This document shows, piece by piece, positions 2,886 to 52,813 of a DNA stretch of 64,000 nucleotides. Under the pieces are notes generated by a model that was not told the origin of the DNA, made no database searches, and was given only the letters and a program-made list of their open reading frames with translations. A program made the position numbers and the translations under genes. Each line of letters begins with the position of its first letter. Position 1 is the first letter of the stretch. The stretch lies in assembly GCA_030390025.1 (NCBI GenBank), contig CM059438.1, positions 8,184,001-8,248,000 on the forward strand, in the 5' to 3' direction. The stretch is from Squalus acanthias (lineage: Eukaryota).

Positions 2886-4141
2886 GTGTTTCTCTCTCTC
2901 CACAGATGCTGCCTGACCTGCTGAGCATTGCCAGCATTTTCTGTTATATTGCATTTGTGTAGCACCGTTAACACAGTAAACATCCCAAGGAGCTTAACAA
3001 GCAAGAAGGAACAGTGGTAGGAGAGTTAGGGGAGGTGACCGAGGACCTTTGAAGCTGGGGAGAGGGGTTAGTGAGGCGGAGGGGGTTAGGGAGAGAGTTC
3101 CAGAGTTTGGGGCCAAGGTAGAGGAATGGGAGAGATTTACAAAAAAAAAAATATGAATGGCAGAAATTCTGAAATAAAAACAGAAAATGCTGGAAATACC
3201 CAGGAGATCAGTCAGCACCTGTACGGTTTAATGGCAGGTTAATGATTCACTCTGCCTTTGATCACGACCTGCATCGCCAAGGTTTTCTACTCTATACAGG
3301 TAAATAGCAGGTTGGTAAATAATCACTTCTTTCCAGCGTTTTGATGGGTAGCAAGGGTGACATGTCGATTCAGCCACAAAAGGCCAGTAATGATTTCTCC
3401 AGCGCAATCAGCAGCAGCTGAAAATATCTTCTCCTGTGGAGATAAAATGATGAAAGTGGGTCAGTGCTGGGAACTAGATACAGGGCGAGTTGTCTGTATA
3501 TTAAATGGAAGTTTGGTATCCAGAGCTCCTGTCTCAGCCAGAGTGTAAAAACCCGTTTGTTGTGACGGCAGATGGATCAATTTTTTTTGCACCTCCACGC
3601 AAAGGAACTGTGCTTTAGCATCTGCAGTGACACAGCCTTAATTAGCACAGACTTAGCCTGTGGCATCGTGGCTCAGTATCTGAGGGGAACCGATCAAGCT
3701 GCGATACAGGGCAACATCCAGGCCAGAGCAGCTCTTCCAGGTATACTTTACCCGTGACAGCAAAGCTCAGACGATCTATCAGCCTCACCTGAACTCCCAA
3801 GATGTGTTATTGAGTCCTTGAACAGTCAGTTCGGCTCAATTGGTAGCACTTATGCCCAAGAACTCAGAAGGTTATGGGTTCAAACCCTGCTCCAATGCAA
3901 GATCTAAACCGGCCCTCCAATACAACCACAACAGCTTGCATTTATATAGCCCCTTTAACATAGTAAAACGTCCCAAGGCTATTCACGGGAGCGTTATCAG
4001 ACAAAATTTGACACCAAGTACTGAGGGAGTGCTGCATAGTCAGACATGGCATCCTTTGAATGAAATACTAAACTTGAAAGCCTATTGAGGCGGACATTGA
4101 ACACCCATGATACAATTTGAAAAGAATGGGGAGTTCTCCTT

Positions 4142-7821: not shown

Positions 7822-8558
7822 GTTTTTTTTAAATATTTGTTCCTGGGATGTGGGCGTCGCTGGCAAAGCCAGCATTTATTGCCCATCTCTAATTGCCCTT
7901 CAGAAGGTGGTGGTGAGCCGTCTTCTTGAACCGCTGCAGTCCGTGTGGTGAAGGTACTCCCACAGTGCTGTTAGGGAGGGAGTTCCAGGATTTTGACCCA
8001 GCAACGATGAAGGAACGACGATATATTTCCAAGTCAGGATGGTGTGTGACTTGGAGGGGAACTTGGAGGTGGTGGTGTTCCCATGCACCTGCTACCCTTG
8101 TCCTTCTAGGTGGAAAAGGTCATGGATTTGGGAGGTGCTGTCAAAGAAACCTTGGCGTGTTGCTGCAGTGCATCTTGTAGATGGTACGCACTGCAGCCAC
8201 AGTACGCCGGTGGTGCAGAGAGTGAATATTTAAGGTGGTGGATGGGGTGCCAATCAAGCGGGTTGCTTTGTCCCGGATGATGTCAAGCTTCTTGAGTGTT
8301 GTTGGAGCTGCACTCATCCAGGCAAGTATTCCATCAGACTCCTGACTTGTACCTTGTAGATGGTGGAAAGGCTTTGGGGAGTCAGGAGGTGAGACACTCG
8401 CCACAGAATACCCAGCCTCTGACCTGCTCTTGTTGCCACAGTATTTATGTGGCTGGTCCAGTTAAGTTTCTGGTCAATGGTGACCCACAGGATGTTGATG
8501 TTGAATGTCATGGGGCAGTGGTTAGACTCTCACTTGATGGAGATAGTCATTGCCTGGC
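7822..8558 (-). mobile_element. 3' fragment of the single-ORF CR1-like LINE family
   Basis: Highly similar to 11810-12575 (DQKLNWTSHINTVATRAGQRLGIL; same 3' UTR and polyA). Confidence 0.9.
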
Positions 8559-8609
8559 AAAGTGATTTATTAAACAGTAAGTTGATAAGTAAACAATAGA
8601 AAGAAAAAT

Positions 8610-9082
8610 AAAGAAAGACTTGCATTTATATAGCGCCTTTCATGACCTCACGACATCCCAAAGCGCTTTACATCCAATGAGGTACTTTTGAACTGCAGTT
8701 ACTGTTGTAATGTAGGAAATGCGGCAGCTAATTTATGCACAGCAAGGTCCCACAAAACAGCAATGAAATAATGACCAGATAATCTAATTTTTTTTAGTGA
8801 TGTTGATTGAGGGATAAATATTGGTCAGGGCACCGAGGAGAACTTCCCTGCCATTCTTTGAAATAGTGCCGTGAGATCTTTTATGTCCACCTGAGAGGAC
8901 AGATGGGCCTCGGTTTAACGTCTCATCCGAAAGACGGCCCCTCTGACAGTGCAGCGCTCCCTCAGCACTGCACAGGGAGTGTCAGCCGAGATTTTTGTGC
9001 TCAAGTCCCTGAAGTGGGGCTTAGAACCCATGGACCTTCTGACTCAGGTGGGAGTGCGACCCACTGAGCCACGGCTGACACC
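8610..9082 (-). mobile_element. SacSINE1/DeuSINE-like SINE, full length
   Basis: Reverse complement of the SINE consensus, including tRNA head and (CTTT)n tail. Confidence 0.85.
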
Positions 9083-11778: not shown

Positions 11779-14515
11779 TACTTATTGTCCCAGAATAGGT
11801 TTCCTTGTGTTTTTTTTTTATATTCGTTCCTGGGATGTGGGCATCGCTGGCAAAGCCAGCATTTATTGTCCATCCCTAATTGCCCTTGAGAAGGTGGTGA
11901 GCCGCCTTCTTGAACCGCTGCAGTCCGTGTGGCGAAGGTACTCCCACAGTGCTGTTAGGGAGAGAGTTCCAGGATTTTGACCCAGCGACGATGAAGGAAC
12001 GGTGATATGTTTCCAAGTCAGGGTGGTGTGTAACTTGGAGGGGAACTTGCAGGCGATGCTGTTCCCATGCGCCTGCTGCCCTTGTCCTTCTAGGTGGTAG
12101 AGGTCGTGGGTTTGGGAGGTGCTGTTGAAGAAGCCTTGGCGAGTTGCTGCAGTGCATCTTGTAGATGGTACACACTGCAGCCACGGTGCACCAGTAGTGC
12201 AGGGAGTGAATGTTTAAGGTGGTAGATGGCATGCCAATCAAGCGGGCTGCTTTGTCCTGGATGGTGTCGAGCTTCTTGAGTGTTGTTGGAGCTGCACTCA
12301 TCCAGGCAAGTGGAGAGTATTCCATCACACTCCTGACTTGTGCCTTGTAGATGATGGAAAGGCTTTGGGGAGTCAGGAGGTGAGACACTTGCCGCAGAAT
12401 ACCCAGCCTCTGACCGGCTCTTGTAGCCACAATATTTATGTGGCTGGTCCAGTTAAGTTTCTGGTGAATGGTGACCCCCAGGATGTTGATGGTGGGGGAT
12501 TCGACGATGGTAATGCCGCTGAATATCAAGGGGCAGTAGTTAGACGCTCACTTGTTGGAGATAGTCATTGCCTGGCACTTGTGTGGCGCAAATGGCACTG
12601 AACACTGTGCAATCATCAGCGAACATCCCCATTTCTGACCTTATGATGGAGGTAAGGTCATTGATGAAGCAGCTGAAGATGGTTGGGCCTAGGACTCTGC
12701 CCTGAGGAACTCCTGCAGCGATGTCCTGGGGCTGAGATGATTGACCTCCAACAACCACAACCATCTTCCTTTTTGCTCGGTATGACTCCAGCCAGTGGAG
12801 AGTTTTCCCCCCGATTCCCATTGACTTCAGTTTTACTAGAGCTCCTTGATGCCACAATCGGTCAAATGTTGCCTTGATGTCAAGGACAGTCACTCTCACC
12901 TCACCTCTGGAATTCAGCTCCTTTGTCCATGTTTGGACCAAGGCTGTAATGAGGTCTGGAGCCGAGTGGTCCTGACGGATCCCAAACTGAGCATCGGCAA
13001 GCAGGTTATTGGTGAGTAAGTGCCAGTTGATAGCACTGTCGACGACACCTTCCATCACTTTGCTGATGATTGAGAGTAGACTGATGGGGTGGTAATTGGC
13101 CGGATTGGATTTGTCCTGCTTTTTGTGGACAGGACATACCTGGGCAGTTTTCCACATTGTCGGATAGATGCCAGTGATGTAGCTGTACTGGAACAGCTTG
13201 GCTAGAGGCGCAGCTAGTTCTGGAGCACAAGTCTTCAGCACGACAGCCTGGATGTTGTCAGGGCCCACAGCCTTTGCTGTATCCAGTGCGCTCAGCTGTT
13301 TCTTGATCTCACATGGAGTGAATTGAATTGGCTGAAGACTGGCTTCTGTGATGGTGGGAACCTCAGGAGGAGGCCGATATGGATCATCCACTTGGCAGTT
13401 CGGGCTGAAGATGGTTGCAAATGCTTCAGTCTTGTCTTTTGCACTCGTGTGCTGGGCTCCACCATCATTGAGGATGGGGATATTCCTGGAGCCTCCTCCT
13501 CCCGTTAGTTGTTTAATGGTCCACCACCATTCATGACTCGATGTGGCAGGACTGCAGAGCTTTGATCTGATCCGTTGATTGTGGGATCGCTTAGCTCTGT
13601 CTATAGCATGCTGCTTCCGCTGATTAGCATGCATGTAGTCCTGTGTTGCAGCTTCCCCAGGTTGGCACTGCATTTTTAGGTACGCCTGGTGCTGCTCTTG
13701 GCATGCTCTTCTACACTCTTTATTGAACCAGGGTTGGTCTCCTGGCTTGATGGTAATGCTAGAGTGAAGGATATGCCGGGCCATGAGGTTACAGATTGTG
13801 GTGGAATACAATTCTGCTGCTGCTGATGGCTCACAGCGCCTCATGGATGCCCAGTTTTGAGCTGCTAGATCTGTTCTGAATCTGTCCCATTTAGCACGGT
13901 GGTCATGCCACAGAACACAATGGAGGGTGTCCTCAGTGTGAAGACGAGATTTTGTCTCCACAAGGATTGTGTGGTGGTCACTGCTACCAATGCTGTTGTG
14001 GACAGATGTATCTGTGACAGGTAGATTGGTGAGGACGAGGTCAAATAGGTTTTTCCCTCGTGTTGGTTCTCTCACCACCTGTCGCAGGCCCAGACTGGCA
14101 GTTATGTCCTTCAGGACTCGGCCAGCTCGGTCAGTAGTGGTGCTACTGAGCCACTCTTGCTGATGGACATTGAAGTTCCCCACCCAGAGTACATTCTGTG
14201 CCCTTGCTACCCTCAGTGCATCTTCCAAGTGGTGTTCAACATGGAGGAGTATTGATTCATCAGCTGAGGGAGGGCAGTAGGTGGTAATCAGCAGGAGGTT
14301 TCCTTGCCCGTGCTTGACATGAAGCCATGAGACTTCATGGGGTCCAGAGTCAATGTTGAGGACTCCCAGGGCCATTCCTTCCCGACTGTATACCATGGTG
14401 CCGCCACCTCTGGCGGGTCTGTCCTGCTGGTGGGACAGGACATACCCAGGGATGGTGATGGAGGAATCTGGGGCATTGGCTGAAACATATGATTCTGTGA
14501 GTATGACTATGGCAT

Positions 14516-14874
14516 GAGGGACTTGAGCACATAAAGCTAGGCTGACACTCCAGTGCAGTGCTGAGGAAGTGCTGCACTGTTGGAGGTGCCGTCTTTCGGA
14601 TGAGACGTTAAACCGAGGCCCCGTCTGCTCTCTCAGTTGGACGTAAAAGATCCCATGGCACTATTTCGAAGAAGAGTAAGGGAGTTATCCCCGGTGTCCT
14701 GGCCAATATTTATCCCTCAACCAATATAACAAAAACAGATTATCTGGTCATTATCACATTGCTGTTTGTGGGAGCTTGCTGTGCGCAAATTGGCTGCCGC
14801 GTTTCCCACATTACAACAGTGACTCCACTTCAAAAAGTACTTCATTGACTGTAAAGTGCTTTGAGACGTCCGGT
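14516..14874 (+). mobile_element. SacSINE1/DeuSINE-like SINE (5' truncated) inserted in the LINE
   Basis: Matches SINE body; flanked by TATG on both sides. Confidence 0.85.
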
Positions 14875-14934
14875 GTAAAGATTGGAGTATGTCAGGCTGT
14901 TGCCTGACTCAATGTGGGACAGCTCTCCCAATTT

Positions 14935-15188
14935 TAAGAACATAAGAACATAAGAAGGCCCTTCGAGCCTGCTCCGCCATTCAATGAGATCATGGCTGAT
15001 CTTCTGCCTCAACTCCATTCACCGGCCCCATCGCCATATCCCTTGATGCCCTTACTAGTCAGAAATCTATCGACTTCTGTTTTGAATATACCCAATGACT
15101 GAGCCTCCACAGCCCTCTGGGGTAGAGAATTCCAAAGATTCACCACCCTCTGTGTGAAGAAATTTCTTCTCATCTCTGTCCTGAATGG
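14935..15188 (-). mobile_element. CR1 3' fragment inserted in the LINE; TSD CAATTT
   Basis: RRNFFTQRVVNLWNSLPQRAVEA; CAATTT at 14929-14934 and 15189-15194. Confidence 0.9.
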
Positions 15189-15871
15189 CAATTTCGGCAC
15201 AAGTCCCCAGATGTTAGTGAGGAGGACTTTGCAGGGTCAACTGGGCTCGGTTTGCCATTGCCGAAGCCGGTGCCAAGTTCGAGGTCGATGGCGGGTGGTC
15301 GGTCTGGTTTTATTCTTATTATTGTTTTTCGGAGCGGTTGTGTACAACTGAGCTGGGCCATTTCAGAGGGCAGTTTAGATTGCTGTGGGTCTGGAGTCAG
15401 ATGTAGGCCAGACCGGGTAAGGACGGCAGATTTCCTTCCCTGTAGGATATTAGAGAACCAGATGGGTTTTTACAACAATCCGATAGTTTCATGGTCACCA
15501 TTACTGATACTAGCTTTTTATTCCAGATTTTATTTAATTAACTGAATTTAAATTCTCCAGCTGCCGTGGTGGGATTTAAACTTATGTCTCCGGATCATTA
15601 GTCCAGGCATCTGGATTATTAGTCCAGTAGCATAACCACTATGCTACCGGTCCCATCAAGCCTAATGTCAGCCATGTGGCTGCAACCAAGCTGGAAATTT
15701 ATAATTTAGAAAACAGCTTTATCTTTGGATATATTATGTATATTATTAATTGTGGTTACAGGAGAGTTGTTGGGAAAGATAATATGCGTATGGTTTTTCG
15801 TGTCAGCATTTTCGCAGGTTTGGTTGTGAAAGCTATAAATAACATAGATGTGTGTTTGGATACTAAATGTC

Positions 15872-16421: not shown

Positions 16422-16978
16422 GCAACTAGAATACTGCGTGCAGTTCTGATCACCACATTACAGGAAGGATGTGATTGCTCTAGAGAGGGTGCAGAGGAGA
16501 TTTACGAGGATGTTGCCTGGGCTGGGGAATTTTAGCTATGAGGAAAGATTGGATAGGCTGGGGTTGTTTTCTTTGGAACAGAGGGGGCTGAGGGGAGACC
16601 TAATTGAGGTGTATAAAATTATGAGGGGCCGAGATAGAGTGGGTAGGAAGGACCTATTTCCCTTAGCAGAAGGGTTAATAACCAGGGGGCACAGATTTAA
16701 AGTAATTGGTCAGAGGTTGAGAGGGGAGTCGAGCAGAAATTTTTTCACCCAGAGGGTAGTGGGGGTCTGGAACTCACTGCCTGAAAGGGTGGTAGAGGCA
16801 GAGACCCTCATCGCATTTAAAAAGTACTTGGATATGCGCTTGAAGTGCCGTAACCTACAGCGCTACGGACTAAGTGCTGGAAAGTGGGATTAGGGTGGAT
16901 AGCTCTTTGTTGGCCGGCACGGACAAGATGGGCCGAATGGCCTCCTTCTGTTCTGTAAATTTCTATGATTCTATGATA
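16422..16978 (+). mobile_element. CR1 LINE 3' fragment
   Basis: LERVQRRFTRMLPGL..SYEERL..LGLFSLE..RGDLIEVYKI; ATTCTATG tail. Confidence 0.9.
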
Positions 16979-22699: not shown

Positions 22700-23165
22700 G
22701 TTTTTAATTCATTCTCGAGATATGGGCATCGCTAGCAAACCCTATTGCTCATCCCTAGTGGCTCTTCAGAAGGTGGTGGTGAGCCACCTTCTTGAACCGC
22801 TGCAGTCCGTGTAGTGAAGGTACTCCCACAGTGCTGTTAGGGAGGGAGTTCCAGGATTTTGGCCCAGCAACGATGAAGGAACATAGATATATGTCCAAGT
22901 CAGGATGGTGTGTGACTTGGAGGTGGTGGTGCTTCCATGCTCCTGTTGCCCTTGTCATTTTAGACGGTAGAGGTCGCGGGTTTGGGAGGTGCTGCCGAAG
23001 AAGCCTTGGCGAGTTGCTGCAGTGCATCTTGTAGATGGTACACACTGCAGCCACGGTGTGCCGGTGGTGGAGGGAGTGAATGTTTAAGGTGGTGGATGGG
23101 GTGCCGATCAAGCGGGCTGCTTTGTCCTGGATGGTGTTGAGCTTCTTGATTTGTTGTTGGAGCTG
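22700..23165 (-). mobile_element. 3' fragment of the single-ORF CR1-like LINE family
   Basis: KKLNTIQDKAARLIG...GLQRFKKVAHHHLLK; same 3' UTR as 11820-11880. Confidence 0.9.
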
Positions 23166-30083: not shown

Positions 30084-30202
30084 ACGGACTGCAGCGGTTC
30101 ATGAAGGCGGCTCACCACCACCTTCTCAAGGGCAATTAGGGATGGGCAATAAATGTTGGCCTTGCCAGCGTCGTCCGCAACCCAGGAACGAATAAAAATA
30201 AA
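30084..30202 (+). mobile_element. Extreme 3' end of the single-ORF CR1-like LINE family
   Basis: ggactgcagcggttc..aaggcggctcaccaccaccttctcaagggcaattagggatgggc...gaataaaaa. Confidence 0.85.
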
Positions 30203-51288: not shown

Positions 51289-51761
51289 AAAGAAAGAACG
51301 ACTTGCATTTATACAGCGCCTTTCACGACCACCGGACGTCTCAAAGTGCTTTACAGCCAATGAAGTACTTTTTGAAGGGTAGTCACTGTTGTAATGTGGG
51401 AAACGCAGCAGCCAATTTGCGCACAGCAAGCTCCCACAATCAGCAATGTGATAATGACCAGATAATGTTTTTTTTTATGTTAGTTGAGGGATAAATATTG
51501 GCCCCAGGACACCAGGGATAATGCCCCTGCTCTTCTTCGAAAGAGTGCCATGGGATCTTTTACATCCAACTGAGAGAGTAGACGGGGCCTCGGTTTAACA
51601 TCTCATCTGAAAGATGGCACCCCCGACAGTGCAGCGCTCCCTCAGCACTGCACTGGGAGTGTCAGCCTAGCTTTATGTACTCAAGTCTCTGGAGTGGGAC
51701 TTGAACCCACAACCATTCTGACTCAGAGGCAAGAGGGCTGCCCACTGAGCCACAACTGACA
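51289..51761 (-). mobile_element. SacSINE1/DeuSINE-like SINE, full length
   Basis: Reverse complement of consensus. Confidence 0.85.
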
Positions 51762-52425: not shown

Positions 52426-52813
52426 GGGAACGGTAGCATAGCGGTTATGTTACTGGACTAGTAATCCAGTAGGGCTGGACTAATGATCTGGCTTTGAACA
52501 TGAGTTCAAATCCCACCAGGGCAGTTGGTGGAATTTGAATTCAGTTAATTAAATAAATCTGGAATAAAAAGCTAGTGTCAGTAACGGTGACCACGAAACT
52601 ATCGGATTGTTCACTAATGTCCTTTAGGGAAAGAAATCTGCTGTCCTTACCTGGTCTGGCTGAAATGTGATTCCAGACCCACAGCAATGTGCTTGATTCT
52701 TAACTGCCCTCTGAAATGGCTGAGCAAGCCAATCAGTTGTCCCACTACAAAGAACAGTGGTTTAAGAAGGTGGCTCACCACCACCATCCCATGAACGAAT
52801 AAGTTAAAAAAAA
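52426..52813 (+). mobile_element. tRNA-headed SINE sharing both ends with the LINE at 11810-15654
   Basis: A box TAGCATAGCGG, B box GTTCAAATCC; 52426-52740 matches 15654-15340 (minus); 52755-52802 matches the LINE ORF end and 3' UTR. Confidence 0.85.

Follow-up and report, generated by a model that had tools for sequence, protein, structure and literature searches.

A tRNA-headed Zenon LINE of sharks and rays that avoids T-runs is a candidate protein-coding transcript of RNA polymerase III

The window analysed here, a whole stretch of Squalus acanthias DNA of 64,000 nucleotides, carries on its minus strand a complete copy of a Zenon LINE, now dead (Table 1). The initial annotation had read this strand as running without a break, once two later insertions are removed, from a tRNA-like head (15654) to the endonuclease motif KVLLTNIWGL (15230), and we found the same continuity. 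The two pieces that it had recognised do interrupt the element, the CR1 at about 14936-15188, where the target shows a short duplication, and the SINE at about 14515-14884. As it also stated, there is no ORF1, and the B box (15572-15581) is degenerate in this copy while it is intact in a sister SINE, which lies at 52426. We find a leader of about 430 nt followed by a single endonuclease-RT frame. Compared segment by segment with a consensus of 21 family copies, the window copy showed 86-95% identity. An 88-nt deletion near 12592 breaks its RT region, small deletions are also found in its leader, and a 7-nt deletion damages the candidate hairpin at 15332..15366.

Table 1. Positions of the Zenon LINE copy, its parts and its sister SINE in the window
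Feature	Position	Strand	Remark
Whole Zenon LINE copy, dead	11810..15654	-	about 3.3 kb without insertions
tRNA-derived head	15570..15654	-	5′ end of the family
A box	15636..15646	-	TAGCATAGTGG
B box	15572..15581	-	degenerate in window copy
Body common to LINE and sister SINE	15367..15569	-	
Candidate anticodon-like hairpin and in-frame complement	15332..15366	-	weak IRES-like lead
Arg/His-rich leader, open in endonuclease frame	15234..15331	-	in frame in 46/55 copies
APE endonuclease start (CKVLLTNIWGL)	15189..15233	-	motif KVLLTNIWGL at 15230
Later insertion, CR1 3′ fragment	~14936..15188	-	short target duplication
Later insertion, fragment of another SINE	~14515..14884	+	opposite orientation
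Remaining APE-RT frame	11876..14514	-	Pfam Exo_endo_phos_2, RVT_1
AATAAA	11862..11867	-	about 45 nt before tail
A tail	11810..11819	-	
Sister SINE, head and body joined to LINE 3′ end	52426..52810	+	

Three further 5′-truncated 3′ fragments of the Zenon LINE were found in the window (7822-8559 and 22701-23165 on the minus strand, 30084-30202 on the plus strand). Just upstream of the head lie 3′ fragments of an L2 (15870-16300) and of a CR1 (16426-16900), both on the plus strand, which we used as queries for the L2 and CR1 control families. A second abundant SINE family is represented by the insertion at 14515-14884 and at eight similar places (e.g. 51330-51690, 2467-2802 and 8652-9010), and it may bear a likeness to the V-domain.

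Judged by sequence, the family is the elasmobranch Zenon catalogued by Stuart et al. 2026 (PMC13343379), whose entries include SquAca_Zenon-1, -2 and -3 as well as the Zenon-1 elements of CarCar, RhiTyp, ScyCan and HypSab. The first 400 nt of SquAca_Zenon-1, compared by eye, match the 5′ end of our consensus almost letter for letter, and its length is 3,314 nt against 3,305. By eye, the published shark and ray consensuses all have the head at their start (7/7) and an A box (7/7), and six of the seven have a full B box; we saw no run of four T (T4) in the first 400 nt of any of the seven. The corresponding 400 nt of two hagfish Zenons and one coelacanth Zenon, also inspected by eye, have no head and do contain T4 runs. 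The main text of PMC13343379 contains no mention of "tRNA", "polymerase III" or "promoter", and the head, the avoidance of T-runs and the missing AUG are undescribed there. No report of a LINE that RNA polymerase III (Pol III) transcribes or that is headed by a tRNA was found in a search of largely open-access literature, and the SINE-type anatomy at both ends of Zenon has apparently gone unremarked before. Several shark and ray gene models (P0002, P0058, P0072, P0087, P0104 and P0107, among them an aldo-keto reductase and an anoctamin-7-like gene) include Zenon-derived protein segments, which are probably annotation artefacts or cases of exonisation.

In principle the head and the reading frame could be neighbours by chance, a SINE having landed here beside a truncated LINE, given how densely repeats are nested in the window. 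A query spanning the head and the endonuclease gave 7,452 first-look candidates in the 3.7-Gb S. acanthias genome; among the best 40 scored, all 39 non-self matches spanned the junction, and 32 of the 39 reached the RT. Together with its presence in the seven published consensuses, in contigs from the runs of three other organisms (which bridge from the body to the leader or to the endonuclease), and with the linkage of head and ORF variants described below, this shows that the junction is not peculiar to the window and refutes chance adjacency, to which we attach a negligible probability.

Since these 39 matches had been chosen through the junction itself, two further samples were drawn. In the endonuclease-anchored one (29 of 40 non-self matches), eight of the 29 loci have their start no further than 25 nt from that of the head, the remainder being truncated. 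In the RT-anchored one (the best 40 of 86 matches to a foreign protein query), four copies begin at element positions 1-4 and no copy begins at 5-239, the other 36 having been cut back to 240-1749. Neither sample revealed an alternative shared 5′ region, and the 300 nt upstream of 50 full-length copies have nothing in common at the junction, apart from one duplicated pair of loci. The genome-wide survey proposed by the initial annotation thus bears out that full-length copies start with the head, which is where the 5′ end of the RNA falls. The duplicated pair, L021 and L027, consists of full-length copies with 98% identical flanks and is either a segmental duplication or an assembly duplicate. 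Target-site duplications at both exact ends were not evident for most full-length copies, and a C directly precedes the head in 12 of 31 full-length copies (among L011-L199), a small sample.

From 21 near-complete copies we derived a majority consensus of 3,305 nt, which holds one open frame of 973 codons, with the APE and RT catalytic motifs TNIWG, LTES, GDFN, SDH, QGSVLGP and FADD. Head site 21 is linked both with ORF site 2060 (20,1,2,15; P=1e-7) and with tail site 3298 (16,2,2,9; P=2e-4). Such co-segregation of head, ORF and tail variants indicates that whole 3.3-kb RNAs were copied, and that the three parts are mobilised as one unit. The synonymous to nonsynonymous ratio of ORF variants was 42:34 for those shared by at least 10% of copies and 495:1533 for singletons (P=2e-8). 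Shared variants being enriched in synonymous changes, the masters needed the protein, which is under purifying selection in them.

The head itself is a weak match to a tRNA. It scores 23.7 bits against the Rfam tRNA model, below the gathering score of 29, ARAGORN found no tRNA in it, and a duplicated segment lies between its two boxes. The family B box is GTTCAAATCC, and 42 of 50 copies have C at the site that is degenerate in the window copy. None of the folds of head, body and leader surpassed those of shuffled sequences (z -0.4 to -1.5). These properties bear on a model in which the element is co-transcribed with host Pol II units and its tRNA-like head, acting as a processing signal and not as a promoter, is cut at its 5′ end in an RNase P-like manner, comparable to the release of R2 by a ribozyme. 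Such processing would account for the sharp 5′ end, the absence of 5′ transductions and the need for cap-independent translation. We nevertheless consider it improbable, given that the fold of the head does not surpass those of shuffles (z -0.86), that its boxes are separated by the duplication and its tRNA score is below threshold, and that T-run avoidance is not predicted by it.

The native segments of the window copy contain no run of four or more T on the sense strand, against 17 runs of four or more A (tail included), as had been noticed in the initial annotation; the 254-nt CR1 insert lacks T4 too. The family consensus likewise has no T4 in 3,305 nt. The comparison with co-resident LINEs that had been proposed shows no such avoidance, with 15 T4 runs in 3,451 nt of the CR1 consensus and seven in 2,449 nt of L2. 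Individual Zenon copies have 29 scattered T4 runs in a total of 251 kb, compared with 177 in 33 kb of CR1 copies. While the zero itself stands, taken alone it is a weaker signal than the initial annotation implied: it is unexpected under a mononucleotide shuffle (P=0.014) and non-significant when the shuffles preserve codons (P=0.11) or dinucleotides (P=0.18). The depletion of TTT, together with the contrast to the control LINEs, is a stronger signal than the T4 count. There were five T3 runs against 11.4 expected under codon-preserving shuffles (P=0.004), a depletion that is weak under dinucleotide shuffles (P=0.08). Moreover, the use of T at synonymous third codon positions drops with the length of the run that it would create (0.42, 0.29, 0.12 and 0/2; P=6e-4), and it is flat in the co-resident CR1 (P=0.38) and L2 (P=0.72). 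Avoidance of T-runs is therefore real and specific to Zenon among the LINEs tested (CR1 and L2).

Several other comparisons of composition were made. C4 runs are also under-represented in Zenon (dinucleotide null, P=0.01), and shark Zenon is T-poor overall (19.7%) and Phe-poor, for which there may be other causes. Among changes to T, those that create T4 amount to 0/24 of the lineage-shared ones and 12/681 of singletons, counts too few to give the test any power. Distant relatives from metagenomes have T4 in 80/80 cases, and an A/B pair in 0/80 in the upstream DNA available; they are imperfect controls, with 22-42% amino acid identity, a T-richer composition and, in many, little upstream DNA. 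When such a distant relative was used to search the shark's own genome, the best 40 of 86 matches all belonged to the headed Zenon family, with no head-less Zenon among them.

The same results can be read in terms of a LINE transcribed by Pol II whose 5′ UTR comes from a SINE. In this reading the captured head provides a Pol II start or has one within it, the A and B boxes are kept through shared ancestry or exchange with an abundant SINE, and the poverty in T is compositional. That T4=0 falls inside both the codon and the dinucleotide nulls agrees with this. However, it leaves unexplained the graded avoidance of TTT that CR1 and L2 of the same genome lack, as well as the sharp fall of the element's 5′ end at the head, and the linkage of head and ORF variants speaks against free exchange with SINEs. 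We regard it as unlikely, yet as the most serious competitor to Pol III transcription.

The 3′ end is compatible with Pol II equally, AATAAA and an A tail being its standard end. AATAAA was found about 45 nt upstream in 69 of 76 distinct Zenon 3′ ends, and all Zenons are described as A-tailed (PMC13343379). A run of four or more T occurs at the tail junction in 23/76 of these ends compared with 20/264 flank windows, and immediately before a run of five or more A in 15/71 tails compared with 80/2,560 other A runs. As candidate Pol III terminators, by analogy with T+ SINEs, these tail T-runs are suggestive. They could also be neutral, since the lengths of the T-run and the A-run show a weak trade-off (rho -0.27, P=0.06), and T-runs are reported to lengthen after insertion, which holds for 24% even within a subfamily of T-minus SINEs (PMC8466645).

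In line with what the initial annotation had noticed about in-frame ATGs in the window copy, no AUG before the endonuclease is conserved across the family, and past the leader the frame reaches its first Met at residue 285. The first 440 nt of the element contain nine AUGs. One of them, at element position 303, has a good context and lies in the endonuclease frame, which would suit a Pol II mRNA; in most copies it is followed by two stops, a few copies lacking one or both, and seven AUGs precede it, so read-through from it is not favoured. Another, at 358, has become ATA in 22 copies out of about 60, a change linked to one subfamily, which also weighs against a conventional Pol II start. For the same reason we discarded a −1 frameshift out of the short frame that opens with the AUG at 358, and no slippery heptamer was seen. 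In what we call subfamily A (e.g. L019 and L178), this frame is about 50 codons long and overlaps the start of the endonuclease out of phase with it, and in subfamily B ATA replaces the AUG. Counts for coding selection in the leader (2:3 vs 24:56, P=0.64) are too small to have any power.

Near the end of the SINE-like body, a hairpin carries a 7-nt anticodon-like loop, and an in-frame GCTA about 25 nt downstream is able to pair with it. Between GCTA and the endonuclease the distance is divisible by three in 46 of 55 copies (two of the exceptions being mis-anchored) and, by eye, in four of five published Zenon-1 heads. The length changes fall within 3- and 6-nt repeats, which tells against an IRES-like reading. 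We consider this hairpin and GCTA a weak lead towards an IRES-like element. The model is the type 6 IRES of viruses (PMC3894237, PMC12221177), and a factorless IRES for LINEs has been raised in the literature as a possibility only (PMC3894237). In the type 6 dicistrovirus IGR IRES, as described in PMC12221177, a hairpin with a 7-nt loop pairs with an in-frame codon before a non-AUG frame, and the candidate may be arranged likewise. It differs in that the loop-GCTA pairing has only 3-4 bp, 14 of 57 copies differ at the first loop U and show no compensatory change, and neither PKII/PKIII nor SLIV/SLV was identified in the helix list. Element positions 200-350 fold no better than shuffles (z -0.43), and Rfam gave no IRES match in the window copy, which is damaged.

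The sister SINE (Table 1) corresponds to element positions 1-327 at 84% identity and 3204-3240 at 86%, has no T4 inside it, and its joint between head-body and LINE 3′ end was also found in contigs of other runs. The shared body may resemble that of SacSINE1 and the Deu domain. Because non-elasmobranch Zenons have no head, the simpler order of events is that a Zenon captured the head of a SINE; by this comparison, an ORF1-less Zenon of an elasmobranch ancestor probably acquired it.

Taken together, transcription by Pol III as a protein-coding LINE is the best explanation of shark Zenon, and we hold it to be probable on the strength of the head, the 5′ ends and the T-run pattern. TFIIIC and Pol III would start at the head, the polymerase could read through the full 3.3 kb because no T4 is present, and a T-run at the tail or immediately behind it would bring termination. 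AATAAA may allow the Pol III RNA to be polyadenylated, as happens in T+ SINEs. Translation of the uncapped RNA would begin internally, with a non-AUG codon where the SINE-like body ends, and the resulting protein would reverse-transcribe its own RNA and that of tail-sharing sister SINEs.

By the usual division, LINEs are transcribed by Pol II, and SINEs yield Pol III transcripts that do not code for protein (PMC5786205). If the Pol III reading is true, an abundant shark and ray LINE with a SINE promoter, avoidance of terminators and no start codon would blur this division, and would offer an example from nature of a Pol III RNA that is both long and translated. Should the larger possibility also hold, which we think unlikely, Zenon would amount to a naturally occurring Pol III gene that encodes a protein, and would give the conserved SINE body a functional origin. 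Two open questions, how translation starts in ORF1-less LINEs and what purpose conserved SINE bodies serve, become testable with a small reporter.

The window family and the published elasmobranch Zenons both lack ORF1, encode APE and RT and end in an A tail, with no difference at the family level in what is published. Hagfish, coelacanth and lepidopteran Zenons, the coelacanth one being CR1-5_LCh, are ORF1-less members of the CR1 group with an A tail that spawn short bipartite derivatives, and shark Zenon is alike. The lepidopteran deletion derivative Persaeus is described as lacking a Pol III promoter (PMC6740152), whereas shark Zenon is headed; that other Zenons and this derivative do without such a promoter is a point for Pol II transcription.

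On the SINE side, SacSINE1 and the Deu-domain SINEs of cartilaginous fishes have a tRNA head and a LINE-derived tail, which is the layout of the sister SINE, but their published partners are L2-2_CM or CR1-4_DR-like and not a LINE that shares the head (PMC5499810, PMC3747384). Like tRNA-derived SINEs (SINE2), Zenon has at its 5′ end a tRNA-related head with A and B boxes, even though its Rfam score is below gathering; SINE2 elements are short and non-coding, whereas shark Zenon has 3.3 kb and an ORF under purifying selection. The T+ SINEs B2, Dip, Ves and Can, whose Pol III transcripts are reported to be polyadenylated (PMC8466645, PMC9599045), combine an A/B-box tRNA head, AATAAA, a variable T-run and an A tail. 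This resembles the layout of shark Zenon, in which a T-run stands before the tail in some copies, with the difference that T+ SINEs are short and non-coding, while the shark element extends over 3.3 kb and encodes its own APE-RT.
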